Below are positions 1 to 24,313 of a stretch of 32,383 nucleotides of DNA, one piece after another. The position numbers were made by a program, and so were the translations under genes. Numbering within the stretch: position 1 is the first letter of the stretch; each line of letters begins with the position of its first letter. The notes under the pieces are model-generated. The model saw nothing but the letters and a program-made list of their open reading frames with translations, ran no database searches and was not told the origin of the DNA. The stretch comes from a virus (lineage: Duplodnaviria; Heunggongvirae; Uroviricota; Caudoviricetes). The stretch lies in the IMG/VR virus record IMGVR_UViG_2861069343_000002, positions 1-32,383 of that record. One strand, given 5' to 3'.

Positions 1-780
1 ATGGAAAACAAAAAAAGTTGCGTTTATTGTAAAAGCACAACAAACTTAACTAAAGAACATATTTTCCCTTCAGCAATAATTAAAAGTTTTAATGTTGAAC
101 TTTTATCGATGACTGATAAGAGTGACTACCATTTTAAAGGCGATCCAGTTATTGGGGATGTATGCGCTGAGTGTAATAATGGAATACTGTCGCAACTAGA
201 TGCTGATTTCGTAACTTGTTTTAAAAATCAGATGCTAACACCTTTAAAACCCGGAAATGAAATAACATTTGAATATGAATATGATTTATTATTACGTGAA
301 CTTCTAAAGATATCATATAATTCAGCGAGGGCATCAAATGGTGGTTATAATGCCAGAGCCATTTTAGAAAAATACATACCATTCATAATCACTGGCAATA
401 AAAACAAAAATGTAGATAGTATAATTCTTTCCCTTCTAATTGTAACTTCTGCAAATATGGTTAATCTGGAAACTGGTAAACATGAAGAGCCTTTAGAACC
501 ATATCTATTAAGAAGCGCATCGATTGATGGTTTAAACCTCAACCCTAACAATTATATTGTTAGGATGGTTGCATTTAATAGCTTTTGGTTTTTTTTGTTA
601 ATTCCAAAGAGGCCAGTTACATCCAAAGTGAAAAAAGAATTTTGGGATGAATTTAAAAGAAAAAATCATCTGCATGGAGTTTTGTTAAAAAGAAACAACA
701 CGTCAATAAAGATCACAAAAGATAAAACGACATATTTGCATCCTGACTTAATAGAAAAGATGTGGCGAAAAATAAAGTAG
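1..780 (+). CDS. HNH (His-Me finger) endonuclease-domain protein, 259 aa, AT-rich cargo gene
   Basis: ORF begins with ATG at window position 1. N-terminal CVYCK...TKEHIFP...CAECNNG spacing is typical of HNH nucleases. Visibly AT-rich compared with phage structural genes (by eye, not computed). C-terminal half has no recognisable motif. Confidence 0.5.
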   Translation: MENKKSCVYCKSTTNLTKEHIFPSAIIKSFNVELLSMTDKSDYHFKGDPVIGDVCAECNNGILSQLDADFVTCFKNQMLTPLKPGNEITFEYEYDLLLRELLKISYNSARASNGGYNARAILEKYIPFIITGNKNKNVDSIILSLLIVTSANMVNLETGKHEEPLEPYLLRSASIDGLNLNPNNYIVRMVAFNSFWFFLLIPKRPVTSKVKKEFWDEFKRKNHLHGVLLKRNNTSIKITKDKTTYLHPDLIEKMWRKIK

Positions 781-1040
781 AACAAATTTTCCAGTTGACA
801 ATACCAAAAATAATTAATGGGGACTAGGTTAAATGACGCAGTGGAACAAACTCACCAGAGAAGAAAATTAATGGTATTAATGTTCAATGTGTTCATTACT
901 GTAACCTAGCCCCTACTAATTTATTCACTATATTGCTGAGTATGTCCGCATCTGGCACATAGCAGCCCTAGAGATAGGAGCACACAGTCATAGATGGTCG
1001 GTGGGAGGTAGTGAAAATCCTCTCATACAATAAATACGTA

Positions 1041-1130
1041 AAATCGATAACGGCAAGAGACCTTTCAATACTCGCACTATCGGAAGTTAACCAACCTGCC
1101 ACAGCACGTTCTCGCATACACGTGTCTGCG
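1041..1130. repeat. Direct repeat copy A (~90 bp), diverged copy of 3298..3388
   Basis: Manual alignment: both copies begin AAATCGATAACGGC and share CGCACTATCG and GCATACA blocks; roughly 75% identity by eye. Confidence 0.6.
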
Positions 1131-1194
1131 CCCCCCCCCCTCCATCAATCATAATCAGATAGAGCCAAAAAACAAAAACAAAAACAAAAAAAAC
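1131..1194. repeat. Homopolymeric C10 tract (1131..1140) followed by a (CAAAA)n-like A-rich microsatellite (1166..1194)
   Basis: Read directly: gcg-cccccccccc-tcc, then caaaaaacaaaaacaaaaacaaaaaaaac. Confidence 0.85.
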
Positions 1195-1391
1195 ATCAAG
1201 TTACAACAATAAAAAAGACGCCAGTCAACCGATGATGAAACAAATGAGGATACGCAAAGGAGCCGCAGCTCCCTAGTAATATGAAAGCCCAGACCATCAA
1301 AGCAGAAGACTGTTAAAATATCAAAAACCCGTTATCCGCTGAAACACAGTACTACTTTGTTTAAGTTAACGATATTGCCTCAAGGGCAGTT

Positions 1392-1925
1392 TTAAAATAC
1401 GGTGAATACATCACACAGGTCCGATAAAACTTCTCGACAAACATGCCTATGATCGCTGAGCACAGAGTTTATATGCTGAAGTGTTATATACTCTTCATAC
1501 CATTCTTGTGTTACAACATTTTTCAAATTATAGAGCCTGTGAAATGACTCTTTTGCCTCCTGCGAATTAACAAATTGTTGATTATGCCCCATTAACCTCA
1601 TTAAAAACCCCTCCAAACAAAATGGTGAGGATTGAATGATTTGTATGTCTCTATTTCTAGCAGCAGATAGAGCATCAGTAGGTATTGCAAGGTCTGAGTC
1701 AATAAAAACAACTCTTTTATCAAAACTACCAGCATGGTTTATAGCAGCCATTATAGCTGATTTCGGTCCTCCACCGCCGGCATCATCTAACCTAACACTA
1801 AACCCTGCAGTCCTAGTTGTTAAGAGTCGTTTTAAACAATCAGCAAATCTTTTATCAGTAATTCCTTCGCACATCAAAAGCTTAGTTCGTTCAACTCCAC
1901 GCTTTACACGTCTGGGCTTCATCAT
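1392..1925 (-). CDS. RloB-like / TOPRIM-like small protein, partner of the upstream AAA ATPase
   Basis: 177 aa. N-terminal basic stretch then LLMCEGITDKRF (CEGxT[ED] motif as in RloB/DUF4276), later VVFIDSDLA acidic motif. ATG overlaps the ATPase stop (ATGATGA junction at 1922..1925), indicating translational coupling. Confidence 0.5.
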   Translation of the reverse strand: MMKPRRVKRGVERTKLLMCEGITDKRFADCLKRLLTTRTAGFSVRLDDAGGGGPKSAIMAAINHAGSFDKRVVFIDSDLAIPTDALSAARNRDIQIIQSSPFCLEGFLMRLMGHNQQFVNSQEAKESFHRLYNLKNVVTQEWYEEYITLQHINSVLSDHRHVCREVLSDLCDVFTVF

Positions 1926-3196
1926 AAGTCTGGTACTCCTCCAAAAGCACCAGCTAAATATTTAGCCGCAATATTATCGTCGACTCGCGCCTCACTGGAT
2001 GGAAAATCATCAAGTCGATAACATTCACTTCTATTGAATTTTTTCTCAGTAATCAACACACGGTACTTACCCAAATAATTTATCAATTCGGGTTTATGAC
2101 AAGTAAAAATTAACTGTGTATGTAACGGGTTTGTTTCTTTACTGATAAACAACTCTAATATAGGTTTAACCATATGTGGGTGCAAATCATCACCAAGTTC
2201 ATCAATAAAGCATGCTGTTCCTTTTTTCAGACATTGCATAATATTATGCAATCTGATAAATGCACTTTGTGTTCCAGCAGATTCGAATGCAAAGGGTAAC
2301 TCAAACTTGGAACCATCTTCTTTTTCATGAATACCATTTATAATATAATAAACATCCTTCTCACCGTTTATATCAACTTTCTCTTCTTTTTCTATAGTTA
2401 TATCATCTAAACCTAAATCCCATTTGCGTAAAATATTTTTTACACTTTTAAAGGCTACTGGATCTTTATATAAATCCTCCGCTGTCGCACCTAAATCTCC
2501 ATAATCATAGCTATACCTTCCCATAGCATTTACATTAGTAGTACTGCTCATTTTTTCGGCTATATCTATAGCCAAAGGAACACCTACACGGCGAGCTGCA
2601 GAAATTATACTTGTATTAGCAGGAGTTCTCTTACCCTCTAAAAGACCTAAAGGAAAAAGTTCTGCTTTTTCAACATAATCATATTTAATTGTTTTTAACA
2701 GTTCTTCAACTTCTTGATGACTAAAATCATCACTACAATTATTTAACTGTTTCTCATAATTTTCTTTATCCAACTTCCTTTTAAAAACATAGATATTTTT
2801 ATTTTTCTCATTTCTTACATACAATTCTTCTTTAATGACAAAATGGTCGCAGGCCGTAACAACATATGTGTATACTTTTCCATCTAAAACAAAACATATT
2901 TTAATCATACCTGGTTTTGTAAAAGGCCGATTAATGTTTAAATACAGATAATCAGTTACTTTTGCTGGTATAGACCAAAAAAACCAACTCAAGAAAGACA
3001 TTGGTTTAAGGAGTGTTGTCTTACCGGAGGCGTTCGCCCCCATGATAGCAGTAATCAGATTGACCTTGTGTCCATCTACATCTACCCACAGTTCTTTTTT
3101 CTTATCTTTAGCTGTAGTAGTTAGGTCTACGAACCCACCTTCATCTTCAAAGCTACCGATATTCTTAATCTCATACCAAAGTATAGCGTTAGCCAT
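1922..3196 (-). CDS. AAA family ATPase (ABC/AAA_21-like), candidate abortive-infection/defense ATPase
   Basis: 424 aa. Walker A GANASGKTT near N-terminus; Walker B plus H-loop ACFIDELGDDLHPH near C-terminus. Strong SD (AAGAGGGG) before ATG at 3196. AT-rich. Confidence 0.7.
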   Translation of the reverse strand: MANAILWYEIKNIGSFEDEGGFVDLTTTAKDKKKELWVDVDGHKVNLITAIMGANASGKTTLLKPMSFLSWFFWSIPAKVTDYLYLNINRPFTKPGMIKICFVLDGKVYTYVVTACDHFVIKEELYVRNEKNKNIYVFKRKLDKENYEKQLNNCSDDFSHQEVEELLKTIKYDYVEKAELFPLGLLEGKRTPANTSIISAARRVGVPLAIDIAEKMSSTTNVNAMGRYSYDYGDLGATAEDLYKDPVAFKSVKNILRKWDLGLDDITIEKEEKVDINGEKDVYYIINGIHEKEDGSKFELPFAFESAGTQSAFIRLHNIMQCLKKGTACFIDELGDDLHPHMVKPILELFISKETNPLHTQLIFTCHKPELINYLGKYRVLITEKKFNRSECYRLDDFPSSEARVDDNIAAKYLAGAFGGVPDL

Positions 3197-3244
3197 AACC
3201 CCTCTTTTTATACAAAAAAATGTTCAAAATCGCCACATGCTGAG

Positions 3245-3274
3245 TTTATAGCAGGAAGCGTATATAGCAAGCAA
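3245..3274 (-). promoter_or_regulatory. Candidate sigma70 promoter for the ATPase/RloB-like operon
   Basis: On minus strand TTGCTT-N18-TATAAA (plus-strand aagcaa at 3269..3274 and tttata at 3245..3250), about 50 nt upstream of the ATPase ATG. Confidence 0.3.
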
Positions 3275-3297
3275 AAAAACATAGACATGATTTAGTT

Positions 3298-3388
3298 AAA
3301 TCGATAACGGCCGGAAATCATTCAATTCCCGCACTATCGAACGTTCACCAGCCAACCGCAAAACGTTATTGCATACAACGTTTCTGCG
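3298..3388. repeat. Direct repeat copy B (~90 bp), diverged copy of 1041..1130
   Basis: See copy A. Lies between the stf stop and the ATPase promoter. Confidence 0.6.
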
Positions 3389-3586
3389 GCATAATCCCAA
3401 TGATTACTCCCTGACAGGATTTGCAGGCCACTCAATATCAGGTGCAGTTGATGTATCAACACGGTTCAGCAACACCCGATACTTTTTCCAGGCTTCCAGC
3501 AACAAGGTTTCTTTCTCCGTTGCGATCTCCAGCTCAACAACAGTCTGAACGTACCGGGAACAGCCTCCTTCAGAGCTTGAAGGATA

Positions 3587-6500
3587 TCAATGTTCGCTTC
3601 CTGTTAACTGCCGGACAAGTGCAACCAGTTCGCTTACCTGATTTTCCAGAGTGCTGATCCGGGTGTCTGCTGTTGCCAGATTTTCACGTAGCGTTGTGTT
3701 TTCCTCTTCCAGCGCGGTAACGCGATCATCTGTTTCACGGGCGACCTGAACAAGTAAACCCGTCACGGCGGCGTAGTCAACATTAAGATAGCGCGTTTCT
3801 TCGCGTAGCTCGTTGCCGTCAACGGTCGGGCCTTGCAACTCTTCACCGTAATGAGTAAACGATCCCACAGCTTCTGGTATCGCCTCCATTACTTCCTGTG
3901 CAATAACGCCAGCATAAGGCATCCCGTTTTCCCTGAGCGTGTAGGTGTATCCGTTCATTTTACGGATTGCTTTCGTCGCGTCGCTGATAACGAGAATATC
4001 GTCTTTAAGGTCGCGGTCTGATGACTGATTCAGCGTTGTGCAATTAATAGCGCCATTTACATCAAACAACTGGCCTGCTGACGTTTTTTGCGCATAAAAC
4101 AGATACGCAGCAGACGTGCCAACCTCAAAAACGTTTTGTCGAGTACTGGAACCCCACACCCTGATACCAACTGGTAGTTCTGAATTACCTGAATTAAGTA
4201 AAGCAAAACGATTGCCAGTCCCTGTTTGTTTTCTAATTACTAAATCGGCAGTTGAGTTAACCTCATCTTTGTTGATGGTTAGCGCCTGTGCTGTAGCACC
4301 GTTGACAGTACCGCTTAGTAGTTGCACCGCGCCATCATCGCCATTTAACAGCACTTGAGCGCTGCTTCTGTGGTTTTTAAGGCACAACATTTTTCCCGTG
4401 TTTTTCGATGTACCTACTGACCACGCCGAATTGGTTCCAGTGCTATCAACACCGCGCACAGCACAATTCATACTACTGTAATCTGACGTACTCCCCAGCA
4501 CATCAACACGCCCGCCGCCTAATTTTGATGGAGTCGTCGAGGTTAACGACCTGACGGTTACATCCTGATTCCATCCTGAAACAACTACCTGACTCCACTC
4601 CGTCCAACTTCCATTGACAACAAAGCGAACGTATATGCGTTTTGTGTCGCTGCCAATCAGCGTTTGCATGATCGCATAATCTGAACCCGTAGTTTTACGA
4701 GTAGATTCTACACGTAGCAAAAAGTTACCGCTTACGCCGTCAGGCTTATTGGTAATATATGCACCACCTGCGACAGTTTTGCATTGATAGTATTTAACAG
4801 ATCCAGCCACTGTATTAGCAATGATCAAGTCGTTTAAATCAATAGTCTTGTTGTCAATGGTTTCCGGCTCGATAGATCCCGCCATACCTGCGTTAAATGT
4901 GGCAAGGTCAGAAAAGGTTGTTTTACCGCCTACCGTCACCCCGCTATCGAGTTTTGCTTGTGTGATTACTTTGCTGTTTTTTGTGTGGTCAGAATAACTA
5001 CCAAAATACAAATCACCGTCACCAGCTATACCCAGGTATTTTTGATCAACATCATCAACCTTAAACCCAATGGACAAGTTTTTAATTGTGTTGTTGCTCG
5101 TTAAAACCAAAGGCGTATGCTGAGATCCTTTGATGCTTACCGTAGTGTTATCGGAACTGGTGCTTGTGTTTGCAAATTCTGCGGTGGCTGCGCTGATTTT
5201 GTAAGTTATTTTTAGATTGCGGGCCTCAACCCTCCCGTCGTGGCGAACAATAAAATCACCACTTGATTCACCTTTTGTGTTTTTCGCCCTGATGTGGATT
5301 TCGCCAAGTGATTCGTTGTTTTCAGGCGACCAAACAACGCCGCGCTCGCTTCCGTCGTTGTTCATGAACCACAGATGAGCGGTTCCTTTTGCTGATTTTA
5401 GCCTGATAGATGGCGTTTCTTTCAATATATCAAGATCACCAGACATAACATCGCCGGATTTTTTCACCTGCGCATCGTTAGTTACGTTGCCAAGTCCAAC
5501 ATCCGATTTCGACGGCTTGTTTGCCGAGCCGTATAGCTCATTGATGCTAAAAGTCCCGTTGTTAAGCCGGGCATCGTTGCCGGCATAGATCTTAATCTTC
5601 GCGGTTGAGTAGTCGATATTGATCGCTGACCACGTATCGCCGCACCGCGAGAATATACCAGAACCGTGGCTATAAATGGTCGCCGTGCTTCCGGTCGGCT
5701 TATCACCGCGCCAGAAATGACCACCTTTGTCACGCAGAGCTTTTAAGATCTCTACATCGCTCATCTTGCCGTTTGTTGATATCCCGCTACCGCCAAGACC
5801 GAAAGCGCCTGTAAGCATAGCATTAGAAAGACCCAAATCTGCTTTAGTCGGCTTGTTTAACTGGTCGTAAATCCTTACAACGGGGCTTTCAACATATCCA
5901 GAAGGCGCGGCGGTTTGCTTAACAAATCCGTCTGGAATGTATAATTCCGTGCGTGCCGTCTGCGCCAGTACCGCAACCTTTGCGCCGTTGATAAATGCAC
6001 GCTGGAAGGCCCAAACCTCAATAAAGCCATCATCTTTAACCAGGCCGTAACGCATTTGCATGCTATTGATTAGCCCGGTTGGCCCTAAACGGCGTATACT
6101 CAGGTAACGAGATACATTATCAGCAGTAAGCGAAGAAGGCAGACCGCGCGCCGAGATCTCGATAAAGTCAATGTTTCCGTAAGGGGAGCCGTAGTCACCG
6201 CCGTTAGTAACCATTAGCGTTACATGGCAATTGTTGCTTCCGGGATCGGAAAGTTTCGCGATCTTTATGTAAAAAGACTCATTACCAGTAACAACGGGCC
6301 AATCGTATTGCGTCATCGGGCTGACGAGTCCCCCGACCTTGTCGAGATATTCTTTCGCCTTGTTCTCTGACGCTTTAGCGTTGGTTTCGCTGACCTTTGC
6401 TGCTGACTCACTATTTTTCGCGTTGGTTTCTGATTTTTTGGCTGCTGTCGCGGAATTTGCCGATGCAGTTTGTGAGTCTGCTGCCGCCTGTGCGCTGTTA

Positions 6501-7345
6501 TCCGCATTCATCTCAGACGTTTTTGCGGCCTTCGCGGAATTTCCTGCCGCCGTTGCCGAGGAAGCTGCACTGCCGGCGCTCGAGGCTGCGCTCGTTTCTG
6601 ATGATTTTGCCGCCACTTTTGAAGCCGACGCATCCCGGGCTGAGGTGGCAGCTTCTGACGCTTTCGTGGTCGCGGTGGATGCAGAAGTGGCCGCAGATTT
6701 TTGTGATGCTGCGGCATTCGTTTCTGACGTTTTCGCTGCACCGGCACTGGTGGCTGCCGCGCTTTTTGAAGACTCTGCAGCGGCAGCACTTTTTGATGCT
6801 TCAGTAGCCTTTGTTGATGCCGTTCCTGCGCTGGAAGACGCTGACTGAGCCGACGACGCGGCCTGTCCGGCTGACGTGCTGGCTGCGCGTGCGGAGTCCG
6901 CAGCATCAGTCGCATGGGTTGCCGCCTCACGGGCTGATGTGCGGGCATCACTGGCTGACTTCTTCGCGGCTGCCGTGTTCTGTGCCACTGCGGACGCGTT
7001 ACGCGCCACCTCTTCCACCATCAGTTCAAAGCGGCGCAGTGCCTCCGGACGGACATCATCCTCCGTCATGGCACCGAGAAAATCATTCAGCGTACCCGGT
7101 TGTGAGTCTTCATACACGGTGATGGTCCCGGCATGCGATGGCGGGAAGCCTTCCACCAACAGAATAACGCTGTACTGACCGTACTCAACGTCCATGCTGT
7201 AACGCCCGGCTTCATCCGGGTTTTCTGAGGCCACTGTGTTCACCACCACCGTGGTGCTGTTACGTTTTGCTTTCAGCTGGATTGTACAGTTCTGTACCGG
7301 TTTACCTGCACCGTCTTTCAGTACACCTGAAATCTTTACTGCCAT
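3587..7345 (-). CDS. stf: Side tail fiber protein (lambda Stf-like N-terminus, A/S/T-rich repeat region, C-terminal peptidase S74 intramolecular chaperone domain)
   Basis: N-terminus MAVKISGVLKDGAGKPVQNCTIQLKA matches lambda Stf N-terminus as recalled. Long Ala/Ser/Thr-rich repetitive segment. C-terminal SDRDLKDDI...NGYTYT...GVIAQEV motif of self-cleaving S74 chaperone. ATG at 7345 preferred over the in-frame GTG at 7351. Confidence 0.85.
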   Translation of the reverse strand: MAVKISGVLKDGAGKPVQNCTIQLKAKRNSTTVVVNTVASENPDEAGRYSMDVEYGQYSVILLVEGFPPSHAGTITVYEDSQPGTLNDFLGAMTEDDVRPEALRRFELMVEEVARNASAVAQNTAAAKKSASDARTSAREAATHATDAADSARAASTSAGQAASSAQSASSSAGTASTKATEASKSAAAAESSKSAAATSAGAAKTSETNAAASQKSAATSASTATTKASEAATSARDASASKVAAKSSETSAASSAGSAASSATAAGNSAKAAKTSEMNADNSAQAAADSQTASANSATAAKKSETNAKNSESAAKVSETNAKASENKAKEYLDKVGGLVSPMTQYDWPVVTGNESFYIKIAKLSDPGSNNCHVTLMVTNGGDYGSPYGNIDFIEISARGLPSSLTADNVSRYLSIRRLGPTGLINSMQMRYGLVKDDGFIEVWAFQRAFINGAKVAVLAQTARTELYIPDGFVKQTAAPSGYVESPVVRIYDQLNKPTKADLGLSNAMLTGAFGLGGSGISTNGKMSDVEILKALRDKGGHFWRGDKPTGSTATIYSHGSGIFSRCGDTWSAINIDYSTAKIKIYAGNDARLNNGTFSINELYGSANKPSKSDVGLGNVTNDAQVKKSGDVMSGDLDILKETPSIRLKSAKGTAHLWFMNNDGSERGVVWSPENNESLGEIHIRAKNTKGESSGDFIVRHDGRVEARNLKITYKISAATAEFANTSTSSDNTTVSIKGSQHTPLVLTSNNTIKNLSIGFKVDDVDQKYLGIAGDGDLYFGSYSDHTKNSKVITQAKLDSGVTVGGKTTFSDLATFNAGMAGSIEPETIDNKTIDLNDLIIANTVAGSVKYYQCKTVAGGAYITNKPDGVSGNFLLRVESTRKTTGSDYAIMQTLIGSDTKRIYVRFVVNGSWTEWSQVVVSGWNQDVTVRSLTSTTPSKLGGGRVDVLGSTSDYSSMNCAVRGVDSTGTNSAWSVGTSKNTGKMLCLKNHRSSAQVLLNGDDGAVQLLSGTVNGATAQALTINKDEVNSTADLVIRKQTGTGNRFALLNSGNSELPVGIRVWGSSTRQNVFEVGTSAAYLFYAQKTSAGQLFDVNGAINCTTLNQSSDRDLKDDILVISDATKAIRKMNGYTYTLRENGMPYAGVIAQEVMEAIPEAVGSFTHYGEELQGPTVDGNELREETRYLNVDYAAVTGLLVQVARETDDRVTALEEENTTLRENLATADTRISTLENQVSELVALVRQLTGSEH

Positions 7346-7354
7346 ATTCACCCC

Positions 7355-7409: not shown

Positions 7410-8009
7410 TCAGAACTTATAACCAACACCCACGATGAAACCGTCAGTGCGCCAGTTGCCACTGCCGGAGCCTTCATAAGCGACATCAACGGCCACGGAT
7501 TCGGTCGGGTTAAACTGCACGCCAGCTCCCCACGCCAGAGAGGTGTTACTGTGGCGAGCGTCATCACTTCCGGTCAGCACGTCGTGCGTTTTTCCCTTGT
7601 TGTCAGTTACGCGGAGATAATCCCCGGAAAAAGTCGACACACGGCTGTAAGCCATACCCGCCATCGCATACGCGCTGAACCATTCATTCACGCGCACAGA
7701 CGGCCCCGCCATTACGCTGAACCAGCGGTTACGAACGGAATCCTCATGCCAGCGGGTATCGCTGTAACGGGTAAGCTGGCGATTCTTGTCTCCTGCATAG
7801 CTGAATGACGTCACCAGCCCCAGTGTGTCCGTAAACTCATAACGGTATTTCACGTTAATCCCGTTCAGATCATCGCTGCCGGGAACGTTGGTCCGGGCAT
7901 GAAGATACCCCGCGCTCAGCGTGGACTGATGTTCAGATGCCCATGCAGGCGCACCGGATACGGCCAGACAAATGGCTGCGGACAAAATGGCGGCATAAAG
8001 TTTACGCAT
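7410..8009 (-). CDS. lom: Lom-family outer membrane protein (Ail/Lom beta-barrel)
   Basis: 199 aa; signal peptide [24 protein letters not shown]; beta-barrel-like alternating aromatic pattern ending ...[10 protein letters not shown]; located between J-like gene and stf as in lambda. SD GAGAGGT before ATG. Confidence 0.85.
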
Positions 8010-12780: not shown

Positions 12781-14739
12781 TTACGCCGTACATTTCACCA
12801 GACCGCGGTGATCAACTGGCGCGACACCGGCGTCAATACGCACTTTCGTTGTCACGCCATCCACACTGAAGCCCTCCATCTGATCAATATATGGCGTATC
12901 CACACCGTTGAGATAAGCCACTTCAATCGTATCGGAGCCTTTTGACGCAGCCAGGTAGAAGGTGGTCTGGCTGTTATCATCAAGACGAGGCTCTGCAATA
13001 ACGGTCGCAAAATCTTTCACCGGGTTAATAATACCGGCGTTAATGTCAGCCCCCTTGACACTTGAGGAGCGAATGACCTGGTTAGCAACAGACTCCATCG
13101 CCGTCGGTACCAGTACGAACGCAGGACGAATATTCAGATGACGCTCCCCCTCTTTCTGAACGCGCATCAACTGGCGGGCTTTATCCAGCGATGCCACGTC
13201 CATTGCAGCGCTCTCCAGTACGTTTGCATGTTTCGCTTTATCGAACAGACTTACATTATCTGTGGAGATTTTCGGGTTAGACGTCAGAATGGCATAAACC
13301 AGATCGGCAATAGTGGATTTCGCCGCACGGCCCAGTTTCATCGGGACATCGGTCAGCATATTCAGATCATCATTGATAATGGCCTGACGGGTGATACTGA
13401 ACAGCTCGCCATAGGTCGCCAGTGCAATAGTGGCCTGTTTATCTCCGGTGGTGACGTATTTATATTCCGCCCCTTCACGCACCTGACGCAGAGCACTGAA
13501 GCCCCCCATACCCACACGATGGGCAATTTTAAAATCAGACAACTGACCTTTCCGCGTCCACTGTTCATAGGTTTCAGGGGCATCTTCCCAGCCCTGCAGA
13601 ATGGCTTTGTTCGCAACATCCAGCAGAATATTACCGAAGTCAGACGTACTGTGTGTGAACGCCGCACCGACCATCTGCATCGGGTTATAACCGGAAACCC
13701 CAATACCCCGTTCAGTCAGTGACATACGGGCATATTCACGCAGGGTCATCCCGTTGTAGACATTATCACGTTCGGTTTTTTCAAATCCGGCACGCGCCAT
13801 CAGCGCCTGGCGAATCCCGTCCCCCACAAAATTACCGTTACCGGCATAAATATGAGCCGGGGTATTTTTATTGGATGGCGTGGACTCGCGCCCCATCTCG
13901 TTCAACAGCTTTTCACGGGCCTGCTCCAGCGAACATTCAGGATCGGCAAGACACTGAGCCTGCAGCGTCTGATAACGCCCGCCAAACATGGCAAACAGAT
14001 CATTAATACCGTTTACACGCGCTTTTTGCTCTGCCAGTACCTGTGCACGGATGCTGTTTTCATCCACCACGGGTGCTGCTGCCTGCACTGGCGTCCGGGA
14101 GGCTTCAGATTCATTATCCTGTACGCGTGGAGCACTGTTGCGTGGCGGAGTAATCATGTTTCGAATGGATTCCGGCATCTTTTTAAATTCCTCTGTACGT
14201 TTTGACTGAATACATGCCATTGCCTTAACGGCTGGCGTTACCTGATCAGCAAATCCATGTGCCAGACATTCGGCACCGGACATCCAGGTCTCATCCGCCA
14301 GCATGGCAGCAATTTCATCGGTGGTTTTCCCGGTTTTCTGTGCATAAGCGGGTAACAGAACCGCCTCAACTTTATCGAGCAGGTCGGCATAGGTGCGCAT
14401 GTCCTCCGCATCACCGCCCGTAAAGCCAAATGGTTTATGAATCATCATGAAGGTGTTTTCCGGCATAATGACCGGGTTTCCCACCATCGCAATGACCGAC
14501 GCCATTGACGCCGCCACACCGTCGACATAAACGGTAATGGACGCACCATGTGTTTTCAGCGCATTAAAAATGGCGATGCCTTCAAAGACATCGCCACCCG
14601 GTGAATTAATATGGAGATTAATGTGGGTGATATCGCCCAGTGCATTCAGATCACTGATAAACTGCTTCGCTGTAACACCCCAGAAACCAATCTCGTCATA
14701 AATATAAATATCCGCGTCACTCTGGTGACCAGCCTGCAT
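12781..14739 (-). CDS. Prohead protease (ClpP/S49-like) fused to HK97-fold major capsid protein
   Basis: N-terminal DADIYIYDEIGFWGV...INSPGGDVFEG...ASMASVIA serine protease motifs, long C-terminal capsid-like region; first ATG after portal stop chosen (14739); longest ORF extends to 15000. Confidence 0.75.
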   Translation of the reverse strand: MQAGHQSDADIYIYDEIGFWGVTAKQFISDLNALGDITHINLHINSPGGDVFEGIAIFNALKTHGASITVYVDGVAASMASVIAMVGNPVIMPENTFMMIHKPFGFTGGDAEDMRTYADLLDKVEAVLLPAYAQKTGKTTDEIAAMLADETWMSGAECLAHGFADQVTPAVKAMACIQSKRTEEFKKMPESIRNMITPPRNSAPRVQDNESEASRTPVQAAAPVVDENSIRAQVLAEQKARVNGINDLFAMFGGRYQTLQAQCLADPECSLEQAREKLLNEMGRESTPSNKNTPAHIYAGNGNFVGDGIRQALMARAGFEKTERDNVYNGMTLREYARMSLTERGIGVSGYNPMQMVGAAFTHSTSDFGNILLDVANKAILQGWEDAPETYEQWTRKGQLSDFKIAHRVGMGGFSALRQVREGAEYKYVTTGDKQATIALATYGELFSITRQAIINDDLNMLTDVPMKLGRAAKSTIADLVYAILTSNPKISTDNVSLFDKAKHANVLESAAMDVASLDKARQLMRVQKEGERHLNIRPAFVLVPTAMESVANQVIRSSSVKGADINAGIINPVKDFATVIAEPRLDDNSQTTFYLAASKGSDTIEVAYLNGVDTPYIDQMEGFSVDGVTTKVRIDAGVAPVDHRGLVKCTA

Positions 14740-14752
14740 CCTGAACCAGGAA

Positions 14753-16261
14753 TTATTCTTCGGACTGGTCGTCGGTGTGCTGCGGCTCCTGTCGTTTCGT
14801 TGCGGCACTACTGCCTCCTTTATCACTGGCCGGATCGGTATCAAATACCAGATCCAGCTTGCGGTTTTCATCAATTTCGGCCTTGCGCCGACGTTTGACA
14901 TCATCCGGATTACGACCACCAGCACGTACCCAGTCTGATTCTGTCGCCGCTCCACCACGAATCTGGATTTTCCAGGCCTCAGCCTCCTTAACAGGGTCAA
15001 TCCACGGCATCACCGGTCCGGAATACACCGCGGTATACAGTGAAGAACGGTCAAGATCGCGGGGTAGCCTGATAACACCGGATGCCACAGCCTGTTTCAG
15101 CCAGGCACGATACATCGGACGGGTGACGGCACCAATAAACCAGTCCTGCAGGATCAGGTAGCCATCAGTGGATTCAACCAGCTCCTGACGCTGGGCGCTG
15201 TAAGTGCCGTTATAGTTGCGCGCTGTACTGGAAAAACTCAGACGACTGCCCGCCGCCACGGCACGCAACTGACCATTACGAAAAGTTTCAAGGTTAGGAT
15301 TGGGGCGATCCGACTTCACCATTCCGATTTCTTCGCCGGGTTTCAGATCATCGTAAATAATGCCTGGCTGAATGGTAAGCTCGCGTTCCTTATCCTTGCT
15401 GCCATTACCATCCGCTTCATAGCTCTGCCCGTCGCCTTTCCGGATGTACATCCCCAGAGCAGCGGCGATCCTTGCTGCAGTCAGCTCAGAATCTTCATAC
15501 TCTTTCAGAGCACTGAGGCGGATCAGCACACCGGACAATAAAGACGTCCCGCGCATCTGGTGCAGACGGCGAACAAATTTAAGATGCAGCATTCGCTCTG
15601 CATCCACTTCTTTGGTTTCCATCTGCCGTCCGGATACGGGACGGCTTTTATACACCAGATATTTTTCGGGACGCCCCCAGTCATCAACAAACACGCCCTG
15701 ATTCAGCCTGTTGCTCTCATCACTGGTCATGGGAATAAAGTCCGGCTCGAGCGCCTCCAGCCAGAAATGAACACCGGCAGAAGGCGTCAGGCTGTTTATG
15801 CGCCCGGAAACCATCTGGGCAAACACCTCACCATCGCGCAGCCAGGTACGAAGCATCAGACGTTCCAGCATCGGACGGGTAAACTGCCCGGTGACTTCCG
15901 GGCTGACAGACCATTCACTCCATCGGGTGCGAATCTCCGCAGCCAGGTCACGGGCAATGGCCCCATTGCGTAATACCGGATGTGGCTCGACAATAATCCC
16001 GTTTTTCCCCACCACCCGTTCTTCCAGCTTGTCAAATACACCAATAACCAGATCGTGGTTGTTATCAAGGTAACGGGCCTGCTCACGTAACGACACGGCC
16101 CCGTACTGGCTTAACTGGTCGGCAGTTCGGTTCTCCCGTCGGGCTTTGTGTGTCCGCGTCGTTTTTACGGCCTCATAAGCCTGGATCACCGCACGGGAAC
16201 GCAGCCTTGCCGCTTTCCATCCTGGTGAAAAAACGCCAATCACATCATCAAGAATTGCCAT
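14753..16261 (-). CDS. Portal protein (lambda-family portal-like)
   Basis: About 500 aa ORF immediately upstream of the protease-capsid gene; no Walker A motif (argues against terminase); acidic C-terminus. Start uncertain: ATG 16261 (SD GAGG), ATG 16291 (ATGA overlap with endolysin stop) or GTG 16303. Confidence 0.65.
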   Translation of the reverse strand: MAILDDVIGVFSPGWKAARLRSRAVIQAYEAVKTTRTHKARRENRTADQLSQYGAVSLREQARYLDNNHDLVIGVFDKLEERVVGKNGIIVEPHPVLRNGAIARDLAAEIRTRWSEWSVSPEVTGQFTRPMLERLMLRTWLRDGEVFAQMVSGRINSLTPSAGVHFWLEALEPDFIPMTSDESNRLNQGVFVDDWGRPEKYLVYKSRPVSGRQMETKEVDAERMLHLKFVRRLHQMRGTSLLSGVLIRLSALKEYEDSELTAARIAAALGMYIRKGDGQSYEADGNGSKDKERELTIQPGIIYDDLKPGEEIGMVKSDRPNPNLETFRNGQLRAVAAGSRLSFSSTARNYNGTYSAQRQELVESTDGYLILQDWFIGAVTRPMYRAWLKQAVASGVIRLPRDLDRSSLYTAVYSGPVMPWIDPVKEAEAWKIQIRGGAATESDWVRAGGRNPDDVKRRRKAEIDENRKLDLVFDTDPASDKGGSSAATKRQEPQHTDDQSEE

Positions 16262-17067: not shown

Positions 17068-18120
17068 TTATTTCCCCACCAGCTCGTTTATCTCTTTCAC
17101 TGTCTGGTTAAACCGCTCTGACTCAAGCTCAACACCTAAGGCCCGACGCCCCAGCGCCATTGCTGCTTTTATTGTGGAACCGGATCCCATAAAAAAATCA
17201 GCAACCAGATCACCTGGTCGACTACTGGCATTGATTATTTGCCTGAGCATATCCGCCGGTTTCTCACACGGATGTTTCCCCGGGTAGAACTGAACGGGTT
17301 TATGCATCCAGACATCGGTATAAGGCACGGAGACTGATACGGAGAAATAGCGCCGGAGAGATTTAAACTCATCCAGCAATTCAGAATATTTGCGATTCAG
17401 TGAATCATAAGATGCCACCAGCTGGTGGTGTGGTTGTTCCAGTTGTTGTTCCTGAAACTTCTCTGCCGCTATACGGGAAAACAGTGCCTGTAACTTCCGA
17501 TAGTCAGCCTCATTCGGCAACTGCCACTGACTGGCACCAAACCAGTGGGAAACCATATTTTTCTTACCTGTGGCTTCGGCAATTTGTTTTGCCGTTACAC
17601 CCAGTTCGGCACGAGCATCCCTGAAATACGATATCAGCGGTGCCATTATGTGCTGTTTGAGTTCCCTTTCTTTTGCCGCATAGCCGTCACTTTTGCCGCG
17701 ATATGGTCCCTGGTAATGTTCAGCAAACAGAACGCGCTCTGTGGCAGGAAAATATGCGCGCAGACTTTCTTTATTACACCCATTCCAACGTCCGGACGGC
17801 TTCGCCCAGATGATATGGTTAAGCACGTTGAAACGTTCACGCATCATGATCTCAATATCAGATGCCAGGCGATGCCCACAGAACAGGTAAAGGCTTCCGG
17901 CAGGTTTCAACACCCGCCAGAACTGGGCCAGACAGTGGTCCAGCCACTTAAGGTAATCTTCGTCCCCTTTCCACTGATTGTCCCAACCGTTGGGTTTCAC
18001 CTTGAAGTAAGGCGGATCGGTAACAATCAGGTCAATGGAATCATCAGGCAGGGACTGAATAAAATGCAGGCAATCAGCGTTGATTAAATCAACACTGTTT
18101 ATTTTTACAGTATTTTTCAT
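17068..18120 (-). CDS. DNA N6-adenine (or N4-cytosine) methyltransferase, beta-class, orphan phage MTase
   Basis: Motif IV DPPY near N-terminus (LIVTDPPYF) and AdoMet motif I FMGSGST near C-terminus; 350 aa. Confidence 0.8.
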
Positions 18121-18712: not shown

Positions 18713-19873
18713 ATGACTACACTCAAAGAACTCAAAGAAGAGCTTGCTCAGATACAAGATGAACACGCTAAGAACAGAAAAAAGGCTGAAATTGCAGCTT
18801 TAACCGCTTCCGCTGACAATGAAATCAGACTCGCTCAGAGAAACATTGGATACAATGTACGTGAGTGGACCGTTGAAGTCATTATTCAAAAGTATGGTGA
18901 TAATATTGAAAATGACAAAAACGAGCTTTTTATTCCAGATTATCAACGTGATTACAAGTGGGATACAAAAACAGCCTCTCGCTTTATAGAAAGTATTCTA
19001 TTAGACTTTCCAATACCTTACCTTTACATTGCTGATGTATTTAATGAAGACCCTGAATTAGATGGTAGGGTAGAAATCATTGATGGTTCACAACGGATAC
19101 GCTCTATTTATTATTTTTGGAACGATCAATTTGAGTTAAAGGATTTGAAAGAGCTTAAAAGTTTAGAAGGTTTCAAATTTTCAGATCTTTTAGCTAGCCG
19201 CCAAAGAAGATTTTTAAGAGCTTCACTAAGATTTATTGAGTTGAAAGGTGATGTTGAGGAACAACATAGAAGAGATTTATTTGAAAGGATCAACTCAGGT
19301 GTTAAAAGATTAGAAGCGATGGAAGTGAGGCATGGCTCAGATGCTGCTACCTCAATGTTCTATAAAGATGTTGTGACCCCATGCTCAACAAACTCACTTT
19401 TTTCCCAACTAGCTCCATTATCAGACCGGAAACGGTCGAATGGCGATCATCGTGAGTTAGTTTTGAGATTTTTTGCATATTTAAATGATTTAGAAAACTA
19501 TAAGGGATTTGTCCGTCCCTTTATTGATAATTATTTAAATGAACAAGCAGCAGCTGTGACTACTCAACAAGATGTTGATAATTTTAAACATGATTTTGAA
19601 ATGATGCTTGCTTTTGTTGCTACCCATTTCCCTATTGGCTTTAAAAAGACCGCAACAAGTAAAACCACCCCACGAGCCAGATACGAAGCCATTGCCGTGG
19701 GAACTGCACTTGCATTAAAAACTAACCCACAACTCCAGAGTCCAGCCGTACCTGTAGGTGAATGGCTATTTGAAGAGGAATTTGAAACACTTGTTACTGC
19801 TGATAGTGCAAACAATACCAGCCAGCTAAAAAACAGAATCTTTTACGTTAAAAATAAGTTGTTAGGGATTTAA
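18713..19873 (+). CDS. DUF262 (ParB/Srx-like, GmrS-type N-terminal domain) protein
   Basis: 386 aa; hallmark motifs FIPDYQRDYKW and IIDGSQRIRSI (DGQQR variant); no DUF1524/HNH C-terminal domain evident; AT-rich. Confidence 0.75.
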   Translation: MTTLKELKEELAQIQDEHAKNRKKAEIAALTASADNEIRLAQRNIGYNVREWTVEVIIQKYGDNIENDKNELFIPDYQRDYKWDTKTASRFIESILLDFPIPYLYIADVFNEDPELDGRVEIIDGSQRIRSIYYFWNDQFELKDLKELKSLEGFKFSDLLASRQRRFLRASLRFIELKGDVEEQHRRDLFERINSGVKRLEAMEVRHGSDAATSMFYKDVVTPCSTNSLFSQLAPLSDRKRSNGDHRELVLRFFAYLNDLENYKGFVRPFIDNYLNEQAAAVTTQQDVDNFKHDFEMMLAFVATHFPIGFKKTATSKTTPRARYEAIAVGTALALKTNPQLQSPAVPVGEWLFEEEFETLVTADSANNTSQLKNRIFYVKNKLLGI

Positions 19874-19875
19874 AA

Positions 19876-20565
19876 ATGAGTCTAATTGATTTACGAGATG
19901 AATATGAAGAAAGAGCAAGAGACATTATGGAACTGCTTTCTCTTGCATCATCTATAGAGATTCATACTCAGCAGTTAGATCCGCAAGCGCATCAAGATGA
20001 AATAGAATCTAATATCCTAAGGGTAAATATTTTAAAATCATCCGTTCATATGATGCTATATAATCAAGTTGAAAATACTGCCAGAGGTTGCATCGAGTCA
20101 ATTTATGATCATTTACAAGATAATGAGGTGAATTACGCATCACTCAGGGAGAAGCTTCAAGTAAATATATTACATAGAATTGTTTCAGATAATGAAACAG
20201 GGCAATCCCTTTATAAAAAGATAGGCACTGACATTTCCAAAAGAATAATTTCAGCCTCATTGAATATTCGTAAAGAATTCAATGGTAATGTTTGCAAGCC
20301 TGTATTACACAAAATAACGCAGGCTTACGGAATAACTATCGCAAACTCACCTGAATGTAGAAATGGTATTGACTTAGACTTGCTTAAGGATATCAGAAAC
20401 GAACTCGCGCATGGAAGTACTAGCTTCTCTAAAAAGGGGCAAATTGACCCCTTAGAAGAAGTTAAGTCTAGAGCAGAGAGAGTTGATCTATATCTTCGTT
20501 TATTAATAAACTCAACTGAAGATTATATTATCTCTAACGGATATTTATCCCCTCAACATGCCTAA
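19876..20565 (+). CDS. HEPN-domain protein (Rx4H motif), putative RNase effector coupled to the DUF262 gene
   Basis: 229 aa; RNELAH matches HEPN R-x4-6-H; starts 2 nt after the DUF262 stop with SD AGGGA; 3' end overlaps convergent MTase gene by 32 nt. Confidence 0.65.
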   Translation: MSLIDLRDEYEERARDIMELLSLASSIEIHTQQLDPQAHQDEIESNILRVNILKSSVHMMLYNQVENTARGCIESIYDHLQDNEVNYASLREKLQVNILHRIVSDNETGQSLYKKIGTDISKRIISASLNIRKEFNGNVCKPVLHKITQAYGITIANSPECRNGIDLDLLKDIRNELAHGSTSFSKKGQIDPLEEVKSRAERVDLYLRLLINSTEDYIISNGYLSPQHA

Positions 20566-21574
20566 CAAACGTTCTCCCTATTACTTGGCCAATTATAGGG
20601 GGAACAGCATTACCAATCATCGTTCCTAACTTTTGGAATGAAAAAGGCGTATTTTTTCCAATAAATTTATAATCCATAGGAAAAGATTGTAAAATAGCAG
20701 CTTCACGCAAAGTTATTGCTCTATTTTGCTCAGGATGTCCGAATCGCCCATTACCATATCCATAACATTGGGTAGTTATTGTAGGACTAGTATCGTCCCA
20801 AACCATCCGTCCATAAACACTTTTATAGGTAGCACCTGAATGCTTTTTATGGCAATCCGCTCTAATTTCTTCAGGCCAATCATCCCACGTACCACCTGGT
20901 AAAGAGTGCAAGATTCGTTTAAGGTTAATATCCCTTAATTTAGGCGAACGATGCAATGGATCACTTTCGAGTTTCTCCCCTGCACCTATTTTTGGCAACT
21001 GACCAATAGCATCCTTTACTGTAACTTTACGGCTTACTTTTTTTTGATCAAGGCTGATTGGCCCCAATATGGACCCAATTAGAATTAATCTACGTCTATT
21101 TTGAGGCAAGCCATACTCGGAACATTTTACAACGTCGTACCACAGATGATACCCAAGAGTCTTTAATACACTAACAAACTCTTCAAAAACCTTATGATTT
21201 CTAAGTTGAGGAACATTTTCCATAGTCACAAGCTCTGGCATGACATCACTTACAATCCTCTGAAACTCAGATAAAAGACGCCACTTTGTATCATCTTTTC
21301 TGCTATTTGGATTACGATACTTGGAAAACGGTTGGCAAGGGGCACAGCCTGCAAGTAATCTAATATTTCCTTCCTTGAACATAGCAGACACATCGCTGGA
21401 TTGCAGTTCAGTAACTGACTGGTTAATGAACTTCGTTAAGGGATTATTGCTCTCAATAGCGAAACGGCAGGACTCATCAATATCAATGCCATGAGAAACT
21501 TCAATCCCGGCTTTTTTTAGCCCAAAAGTTAAGCCCCCTGCGCCACAAAAAATGTCTACTGCTTGAATGTTCAC
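20534..21574 (-). CDS. DNA cytosine-5 methyltransferase (Dcm-like), first gene of the late operon
   Basis: Motif I DIFCGAGG, motif IV GCAPCQPFS (catalytic PC), motif VI ENV, motif VIII QNRRR, motif X GNAV; GTG start at 21574 with SD GGAGAA. Confidence 0.85.
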   Translation of the reverse strand: MNIQAVDIFCGAGGLTFGLKKAGIEVSHGIDIDESCRFAIESNNPLTKFINQSVTELQSSDVSAMFKEGNIRLLAGCAPCQPFSKYRNPNSRKDDTKWRLLSEFQRIVSDVMPELVTMENVPQLRNHKVFEEFVSVLKTLGYHLWYDVVKCSEYGLPQNRRRLILIGSILGPISLDQKKVSRKVTVKDAIGQLPKIGAGEKLESDPLHRSPKLRDINLKRILHSLPGGTWDDWPEEIRADCHKKHSGATYKSVYGRMVWDDTSPTITTQCYGYGNGRFGHPEQNRAITLREAAILQSFPMDYKFIGKNTPFSFQKLGTMIGNAVPPIIGQVIGRTFVRHVEGINIR

Positions 21575-23371: not shown

Positions 23372-24313
23372 TCACCCCCTGAATCCTGCCGGGATCTGGC
23401 TGTAGTCCACGCTGTCGTAACTGGATTTGAAATACGGGTCTTCGCGTTTTTCTGTGTATGTGCTGATGGACGGCGATAAGCGCAGGGAAAGCTCATCCCA
23501 TTTTTCCCGCAGCTTCGACGGGCTGAGCACGTTACGGCACCAGAACGGATCGCGGCTGACGCGGCTGTACATCTCGCAGATTTGTTTGTGAGTACGACCA
23601 TCCTGCACACACATCAGGCGAATTTCGTTTGCCCAGGCTGTCCAGTTCGGTTCTTTGGGACGAACCACCTCGCCGTCACATTCGGCGGCCTGCTCGTACA
23701 GGGCAATGATTTTTTTCCAGAGCCACTGTGCGCAGGTCAAATCATCCTGCGTTCCCCACTGGCGCTTTTTAGGGCTGAATACAACCGCATCAGGATGGCG
23801 AGTTAAAAAATCCTGTTCAGCCGTCTGCGTGTCCGGTTGCGAAGCGTCCGGACGAGAAGGTTTTTTATCTGACGGATCATGTTTTGATTTTACTGACGGA
23901 TCCCCGCCAGATTCTGACGGGTGAAAACCCGCTTTTTTGCCAGATTTCGACGCATCAAATTTTGACGTGTCAGATTTTGATGCGTCAGATTTTGACGGGT
24001 CAGAATCTGACAGTTGAGAAAATGCCGCTGCCTGAAGCTTCGCAACGTTAAGCTGATAAACATTCGACGCATTGCGGTTACCCTGGCGACGCGCCTTACG
24101 CGTTAACCAGCCTTCTGCTTCCAGCCGTGCGATAGCCGTTCTGACGGTACTCATCCCCGCGCCAATCTGACGGGCAATAGTTTCAATTGATGGCCAGCAC
24201 ACACCTTCGTCATTACTGAAATCAGCCAGGCGGGCCATAATTGCCACGCTGGATAATTTCATGCCTGACGCAGCGCAACCATCCCATACATAGCCGGTTA
24301 ATTTAGTGCTCAT
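23372..24313 (-). CDS. Replication initiator (lambda O-like function) with winged-helix N-terminus and iterons inside the coding sequence
   Basis: N-terminal HTH/winged helix (SIETIARQIGAGMSTVRTAIARLEAEGWL); central SKSDASKSDTSKFDASKSG repeats encoded by tandem approximately 15-bp DNA repeats; SD AGAGGT before ATG 24313. Confidence 0.6.
   Translation of the reverse strand: MSTKLTGYVWDGCAASGMKLSSVAIMARLADFSNDEGVCWPSIETIARQIGAGMSTVRTAIARLEAEGWLTRKARRQGNRNASNVYQLNVAKLQAAAFSQLSDSDPSKSDASKSDTSKFDASKSGKKAGFHPSESGGDPSVKSKHDPSDKKPSRPDASQPDTQTAEQDFLTRHPDAVVFSPKKRQWGTQDDLTCAQWLWKKIIALYEQAAECDGEVVRPKEPNWTAWANEIRLMCVQDGRTHKQICEMYSRVSRDPFWCRNVLSPSKLREKWDELSLRLSPSISTYTEKREDPYFKSSYDSVDYSQIPAGFRG
23890..24013. 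repeat. Iteron array (putative phage replication origin) inside the initiator gene
   Basis: Tandem approximately 15-bp units (CAGATTTCGACGCAT, CAAATTTTGACGTGT, CAGATTTTGATGCGT, CAGATTTTGACGGGT, CAGAATCTGACAG) plus upstream CAGATTCTGACGGGT. Confidence 0.55.

Follow-up and report, generated by a model that had tools for sequence, protein, structure and literature searches.

A C10 homopolymer beside an AbiL defence cassette as the probable relic of a tmRNA-gene attachment junction inside a thrW-integrated lambdoid prophage

The window analysed here, by which we mean the whole stretch of 32,383 nucleotides, is a lambdoid prophage that is reversed relative to the lambda map. Within it, a run of ten cytosines and an A-rich hexamer tract lie in the intergenic space between two convergent cargo genes, ORF1 and AbiLii. 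The genes and tracts that frame this locus are as follows:

1-780, + strand: ORF1, 259 aa, a cargo gene of the b-like region with a weak N-terminal HNH_5 match
1011-1154: 47-aa ORF across the C-run, which reads the run as Pro-Pro-Pro
1131-1140, + strand: C10 homopolymer, polymorphic in length
1166-1194, + strand: A-rich hexamer tract C-A6-C-A5-C-A5-C-A8-C (TRF and alignments to the ssrA trailer)
1383-3293, − strand: AbiL defence cassette including its upstream region (Citrobacter braakii homology and PADLOC)
1392-1925, − strand: AbiLii (PADLOC 1.5e-9)
1922-3196, − strand: AbiLi (PADLOC 1e-65)
3404-3538, − strand: tail-fibre-assembly (tfa) gene remnant
3587-7351, − strand: tail-fibre gene
7410-8009, − strand: lom
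12781-15000, − strand: head protease-capsid fusion
29762-30925, + strand: integrase, adjoining tRNA-Thr(CGU)
30940-31015: tRNA-Thr(CGU), thrW, abutted by the integrase

The C10 run noted in an earlier sequence-only reading is indeed present, at 1131-1140, and is the only C or G run longer than 6 nt in the whole window. Under an iid model, 0.037 runs of at least 10 nt are expected per window, and in a comparison set of 1.23 Mb drawn from other enterobacterial prophages and islands one further C10 was found, along with three runs that are 8 nt long and eight that are 7 nt long, in agreement with the earlier description of the tract as unusual. The second C10 of the 1.23 Mb (L060 4051-4060) has no similarity to the window tract. 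The homopolymer is separated by 25 nt of mixed sequence from the A-rich tract, which TRF calls as (AAAAAC)x3.8 at 1168-1190 with 100% matches, so that the repeat unit is a hexamer and the pentanucleotide (CAAAA)n proposed earlier has to be given up. The placement of the tract, between convergent genes and outside both, was read correctly, with ORF1 (1-780, + strand) ending 351 nt away on one side and AbiLii (1392-1925, − strand) ending 251 nt away on the other. The same is true of its position after a repeat: direct-repeat copy A was placed at 1038-1120 by repeat search, blastn and further alignments push its end to 1130, and the C10 begins on the next base, where the homology of the repeat stops.

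The prophage that carries these features is integrated at thrW. A 64-nt att repeat at 30922-30985 is found again 510 nt upstream of ORF1 in strain AR437 (L001), and ORF1, the tract and AbiL are therefore placed inside the prophage, at the position of the lambda b region. The sole integrase found in the window, whose ORFs were scanned for recombinases in part, abuts the tRNA-Thr gene, and no ssrA-type integrase was found near the tract. Over exactly 1383-3293 the AbiL cassette shows 82% nucleotide identity to Citrobacter braakii (L017), and it is present in just 13 of 5426 complete Escherichia coli genomes, in every case together with the tract. In C. braakii the AbiL genes (L017 2410-4534) lie directly downstream of tRNA-Ser(CGA) and are followed by a convergent 423-aa ORF; a tRNA-associated island is suggested as the usual home of the cassette. 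Elsewhere in the window, a second cargo cluster (18713-21574 and 17068-18120) encodes a GmrSD_N-domain protein (386 aa) and a HEPN protein (229 aa), both on the + strand, and adjoins a C5 cytosine methylase and an N6/N4 methylase, both on the − strand; this cluster is likely a further defence or epigenetic module of the prophage. A sub-threshold Rfam match to IS009 at 3447-3647 on the − strand (92.5 bits versus a gathering threshold of 117, E 4e-21) is derived from coding sequence, namely the tfa remnant and the 3' end of the tail-fibre gene, and is not an sRNA gene.

The repeat that ends immediately before the C-run belongs to a conserved non-coding element, here called element E, of which the window holds two copies:

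942-1130, + strand: element E copy A, conserved and non-coding, 82% identical to lambda 24351-24163
3295-3389, + strand: element E partial copy B, namely its 3' 95 nt; the hairpin is intact, and the stop codon of the tfa remnant lies 15 nt away

E is ~190 nt long and forms the terminal non-coding segment in a family of prophages and islands; its lambda counterpart is the non-coding gap between ea31 and ea47, and copies A and B are 77% identical to one another. The element is found in 5375 of the 5426 complete E. coli genomes (99%), at a median of 2 copies. Its last ~35 nt (about 1096-1130) form a hairpin, which recurs on its own just past lambda tfa, so that ea47 is bracketed in lambda much as AbiL is bracketed here (L002 3001-3191 and 4744-4780). 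In copy A this hairpin is weakened by an A-C mismatch and by the loss of basal pairs, and it is followed by the C10, as opposed to the U-rich stretch that follows it in some other copies. Among the non-self matches listed, matches to E in E. coli genomes end at 1130, the base before the C-run, with the exception of one attR-type locus, in which the match continues beyond 1130.

Several further observations concern the element itself. In its terminal 11-12-bp hairpin, two double (compensatory) changes separate the lambda copy from copy B/lam2 and leave the pairing intact, and a T5 follows the hairpin in L074, L081 and L128. Cargo bracketed by E includes AbiL in the window, ea47 in lambda, Avs2 in L144 and the SRAP/polV remnants in L143. 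E is probably a terminator that doubles as a homology anchor for cargo exchange. That it could be a remnant of a protein-coding gene was ruled out, as 1-nt indels shift the frames between copies and substitutions in the open frame are mostly non-synonymous. A search of the literature found no description of element E or of the att relic described below.

Beyond copy A, three further features, each with homology outside the prophage, fill the space up to the AbiL cassette:

1131-1147, + strand: putative ssrA 3'-end relic (att core), consisting of C10 and TCCATCA (alignments, global alignment, colinear blastn)
1148-1291, + strand: ssrA 3' trailer relic, ~75% identical to the E. coli trailer
1288-1381, + strand: IS4-family relic, the last ~92 nt (transposase 3' end and terminal inverted repeat), 80% identical to L019 2501-2591

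The trailer is the longer of the two ssrA-like segments. Window positions 1178-1291 match (~75%) the DNA that comes directly after ssrA in 3789 of 5426 E. coli genomes; in strain 19AR1321 (L018) the match begins 23 nt past the annotated tmRNA gene, and in K-12 it lies at the right end of CP4-57. For the alignment of 1148-1291 with the trailer, the E-values are 4e-18 against L018 and 4e-16 against K-12. The relic keeps the stem-loop GGAGC-CGCA-GCTCC at 1259-1272, its terminator hairpin is broken off after GAAAGCCC, and the GGTGT/ACACC hairpin of the natural trailer is missing. The A-rich tract aligns with GGACAACACCAACAAAAACA of the natural trailer and is 7-8 nt longer. Substitutions in the relic run towards A on the + strand in 19 of 32 cases (G>A 11, C>A 6), and the trailer between 1148 and 1247 is 59% A, versus 39% in natural ssrA trailers.

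In the core, the C10 lies opposite TCCCGCCAGC, which comprises part of the T-arm and the acceptor 3' strand of tmRNA, and the window's TCCATCA lies opposite TCCACCA, so that the CCA end of ssrA reads TCA in the window. The full ssrA counterpart is (GGTTCAAC)TCCCGCCAGC-TCCACCA, of which 8 nt of the T-arm, GGTTCAAC, are deleted from the window core. In the alignment rows, window CCCCCCCCCC corresponds to TCCCGCCAGC at the ssrA locus and window ATCATAATCAGA corresponds to ATCATGATTGGA. The core matches E. coli ssrA at only 12 of 18 positions, its placement being set by the flanking homology, and derivation of the homopolymer from the ssrA end needs four independent changes, all of them to C. Intermediate alleles of the C-run were absent from two exact-pattern scans of viral contigs and from the ssrA-flank extracts. 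Because of this 12/18 match and the lack of an intermediate allele, the assignment of the core leans mainly on its position between two clearly homologous flanks. Rfam searches, both at gathering threshold and by E-value, gave no tmRNA match for the core, as is expected for 17 nt.

Junctions of the same kind were found outside this prophage. Viral contigs were scanned with the conserved trailer stem-loop GGATACGCAAAGGAGCCGC, which gave at least 120 stretches, of which 115 oriented ssrA-flank extracts were taken; among the matches listed, the same trailer follows an intact ssrA in many of the 115, and in 10 of them the E hairpin is joined directly to GGTTCAACTCCCGCCAGCTCCACCA, which leads into the trailer. 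The window, from about 942 to 1290, aligns with these ten attR-type loci in one colinear blastn alignment (E 1e-41 to 1e-56), the tenth (L043) aligning from 1029 only (E 8e-29). This alignment passes through the C-run and the A-rich array without a break, so that the tract belongs to the interior of an old composite and is not a joint made on the arrival of AbiL. At the attR-type junctions the order is mobile-element DNA (E), ssrA core and host flank (trailer).

The intact E-core-trailer arrangement has also been found inside two other prophages, L142 and L143. The first of these lies at the same thrW/LysR site, and the derived ...AAAAAAACATGAAGTTA is common to it and to the window. In the second, the trailer leads into an SOS-response peptidase gene, polV remnants, an invertase remnant and then tail genes, and its peptidase and polV genes are those found downstream of ssrA in strain 19AR1321 (L018). 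As read from the order of these segments, ssrA-flank DNA, including the att junction, is shown to be built into prophage accessory regions. The window site shares with ssrA attachment junctions the trailer that follows and the mobile-element DNA that precedes, and it has no cognate integrase; because the only integrase found is the tRNA-Thr one, the site is taken to be a relic and not a working att site. The suggestion that the tract might mark a recombination junction thus holds in part, in that it lies at the end of the repeat homology and is the relic of an att junction, and fails in part, in that it is not the joint made by the present cargo.

The remainder of the insert can be accounted for piece by piece. 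In L019, where the last 90 nt of the element match window 1288-1379, the coding sequence of the IS4-family transposase ends at 2581, and what the window retains is a remnant only, with one terminal repeat left and no transposase gene. The outer end of this stub lies 2-3 nt from the limit of Citrobacter homology and thus adjoins the AbiL cassette, and its inner break is fused to the broken terminator stem of the trailer, at GAAAGCCC. These two ends, one at the AbiL edge and one at the broken terminator, suggest that an IS-mediated deletion may have brought AbiL beside the att relic. Two other origins for the tract were considered and rejected: the C-run is not a GC-rich target duplication of an IS186/IS4-type element, since the outer end of the stub faces AbiL, 250 nt from the C-run, nor does the tract belong to the AbiL cassette, as the Citrobacter homology stops at 1383.

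An empty version of the site is seen in prophage L010, which is 96.8% identical to window 563-1124. It combines the 3' end of ORF1 with a single copy of E and a DNA-invertase gene and lacks the relic, the IS stub and AbiL. Measured against this empty site, the insert spans 2257 bp, the same as the distance between the repeats, and diverged copies of the 3' part of E flank it. A metagenome contig (L021) has the full insert with C9, and after copy B it carries an invertase gene instead of the tfa remnant. From this arrangement we infer that insertion took place by one homologous exchange in E together with one illegitimate joint, or by a single crossover with a circular intermediate. No donor genome with IS4 and AbiL downstream of ssrA was found: a search of the genome collection with the AbiLii protein gave the single Citrobacter locus by tRNA-Ser, two exact-pattern scans of viral contigs gave none, and a metagenome scan gave the same prophage only (C9). 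The phage collection contained no copy of 1126-1295 except for one short, weak match.

The locus has been found in 13 of 5426 complete E. coli genomes and in one metagenome contig, and the length of the tract varies among them. In the window and its 14 near-identical copies (13 genomes and the metagenome contig), C10 occurs eight times, C9 four times and C8 three times, and copies carrying C8, C9 or C10 are otherwise 99.8-100% identical. Four Swiss isolates with almost identical coordinates carry C8, C8, C9 and C10. The adjoining 1911-nt cassette is 99.8-99.9% identical across all 13 genomes. An alignment of nine copies (the window and eight loci) over 811 nt has six variable columns, of which two fall in the C-run, one is a SNP, one is a T deletion in strain 455 that lies outside any run, and two, C1179T and a change from A8 to A7, belong to isolate F467 (L008).

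These alleles fit replication slippage at a 10-nt homopolymer, and they could equally be long-read homopolymer sequencing errors, which predict the same pattern. The expectation that the tract is prone to slippage is accordingly upheld as regards the length differences (8, 9 and 10 C in near-identical copies), which may stem from either of these two sources. Comparison with other strains, which the earlier reading had put forward as a check, shows that length is not uniform and that the tract always accompanies the AbiL cargo (13 of 13 genomes). Its further suggestion of an assembly junction is not sustained: an artefact is excluded because the same arrangement recurs in 13 complete E. coli genomes and in a metagenome contig.

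Signals that would give the tract a function were also sought. Scanning found no sigma-70-like promoter at the tract and, between 1090 and 1300 on both strands, no intrinsic terminator; a −10-like CATAAT at 1150-1155 was read by eye and has no acceptable −35 upstream. RNA folding was no better than that of shuffled sequences for 1085-1300 on the + strand (z −1.5) and 1085-1400 on the − strand (z 0.05). No Rfam family was found for the tract in a gathering search or in an E-value search to E 10, apart from a chance-level match to CrcZ that stems from the A-rich motif. The frame of the 47-aa ORF is not conserved, as 1-nt indels separate homologues, and of the 14 codons that differ from lambda, 11 were counted by hand as non-synonymous. 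With no promoter or terminator at the tract and no fold beyond that of shuffles, there is no evidence for the possibility raised earlier, that termination or transcript stability is affected, and a regulatory role would appear unsupported, as argued from this lack of signals.

Taken together, the C10 and the (AAAAAC)n array are, with good confidence, best read as a fossil ssrA att junction inside a thrW-integrated lambdoid prophage, with no purpose-built signal. In the proposed sequence of events, an element at ssrA, or recombination through E, would have carried the attR junction together with IS4 and AbiL into the accessory region of the prophage, and this transfer would have left E duplicated as copies A and B around the 2257-bp insert. 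The non-functional core and trailer would then have decayed, with substitutions and slippage presumably turning a C-rich patch into the homopolymer and a CAAAAA patch into the short array. An IS4-family element has cut the trailer terminator and left its own last 92 nt abutting AbiL. The C-run is now probably a slippage-prone, neutral tract with no reading frame or promoter to switch, which would account for C8, C9 and C10 among near-identical strains. The trailer could also be the mobile element's own copy (an attP arm) instead of captured host DNA.

The alternative that survives best is that the decayed end has been exapted as a Rho-dependent terminator or insulator, in which a rut site would halt transcription from ORF1 before it enters the AbiL operon in antisense, and in which the U-rich run on the other strand would help to end AbiL transcripts. 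Composition suits such a site, with 80-nt windows over 1061-1220 containing 15-34 C versus 6-12 G, and those starting at 1061-1121 containing 25-34 C versus 8-12 G, and so does the weak fold of the + strand. The hairpin of copy A is degraded and has no U-tract, such that another stop between the convergent genes would be useful. However, composition by itself is a weak predictor of Rho-dependent termination, the same rut-like composition also follows from decay of a C-rich tRNA-like end with drift towards A, and conservation outside this one prophage lineage, as would be expected under selection for a rut site, is lacking. We regard this exaptation as unlikely, while noting that it would be compatible with the fossil origin and not an alternative to it.

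It is a good deal less probable that E, with or without a residual ssrA core, serves as a portable landing pad at which lambdoid prophages capture and swap tmRNA-flank DNA, including AbiL, and at which the C-run tunes residual recombination or read-through. If this were true, the tract would belong to an integron-like site for cargo exchange that nearly all E. coli genomes carry.

A phase-variable contingency switch, in which slippage of the C10 alters a neighbouring gene or a small ORF such as the 47-aa ORF at 1011-1154, appears very improbable. A 10-base homopolymer with three length alleles in near-clonal strains, including the four Swiss isolates, is what such a switch would show, and the 47-aa ORF does span the tract. 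Yet there is no sigma-70-like promoter at the tract, the CATAAT lacks a −35, the 47-aa frame is not conserved, ORF1 and AbiLii, the nearest genes, converge on the tract and stop 351 nt and 251 nt short of it, and the length differences may be sequencing error. The placement of contingency loci, inside a coding frame or in a −35/−10 spacer, is thus not that of this tract. Finally, a fresh illegitimate-recombination joint or filler from the insertion of AbiL, or an assembly artefact, can be dismissed as hardly credible: the tract does begin right where copy A ends, and the cargo never occurs without it, but homology continues past the tract and into the ssrA trailer, the end of the cassette itself is 250 nt off, at 1383, and the sequence is repeated in 13 independent complete genomes and in a metagenome contig.

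The reading as a fossil att junction can be set against systems that are already known. The tmRNA gene has long been known as a hot spot of integration, at which tandem traffic of elements has reportedly been described. Displaced copies of the ssrA 3' end at attR have been shown to carry mutations, the copy in K-12 lacking T357 (PMC10107115). In the present analysis, absence of T357 was also seen in L020 by global alignment. Like the window, CP4-57-type attR junctions run from element DNA through a copy of the ssrA 3' end into a trailer with a GGAGCCGC(A/G)GCTCC stem-loop, the known copies ending in CCA, and there too the displaced ssrA copy is non-functional and mutated. Unlike them, the window relic is buried in a thrW prophage and not at ssrA, with no ssrA-type integrase nearby, and its core has decayed much further (8 nt lost, four positions turned to C, CCA to TCA), with a trailer truncated by an IS.

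In lambda gal and lambda bio, att-adjacent host DNA has been captured in the manner of specialised transduction. The window is similar in that att-adjacent DNA and an att junction now lie in a phage accessory region, a pattern also shown by L143, whereas here the capture is inferred, the present prophage uses another att site, and recombination in E could have moved the module. In the ea31-ea47 region of lambda itself, E is 82% identical and its hairpin is repeated on the far side of ea47 after tfa; after E, however, there is no C-run or trailer but GGCTCTACCATATC, which is at most a much shorter trace of the core. This lambda sequence (L002 3185-3200, lambda ~24150-24165) resembles the ssrA end GCTCCACCAATC at 12 of 13 positions with one gap, and what lambda has kept in its b region may be a still smaller remnant of this tmRNA att core, although the similarity is weak.

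Contingency loci are phase-variable homopolymeric tracts, among them the poly-C or poly-G tracts that Bordetella, Neisseria and Haemophilus carry in promoters or ORFs. The window tract resembles them as a long run of G/C whose length, as assembled, differs between close relatives; its position differs, being outside any promoter spacer or conserved frame, with no gene coupled to it. The locus is best seen as an ordinary decayed att-site relic with a probably neutral, apparently hypermutable run, of which this specific instance has not been described previously.

For those who annotate these genomes or call variants in them, length differences from C8 to C10 at this position are expected noise or slippage. 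A more useful lead than the tract is element E, a conserved non-coding hairpin element that brackets variable prophage cargo. What the reading of the tract as a fossil junction would mean is that a striking homopolymer beside a defence cassette is the decayed end of a tmRNA gene and not a regulatory device, and that the att junction, its flanking DNA and the IS4 stub would together be a concrete trace of the route by which AbiL came into the prophage.
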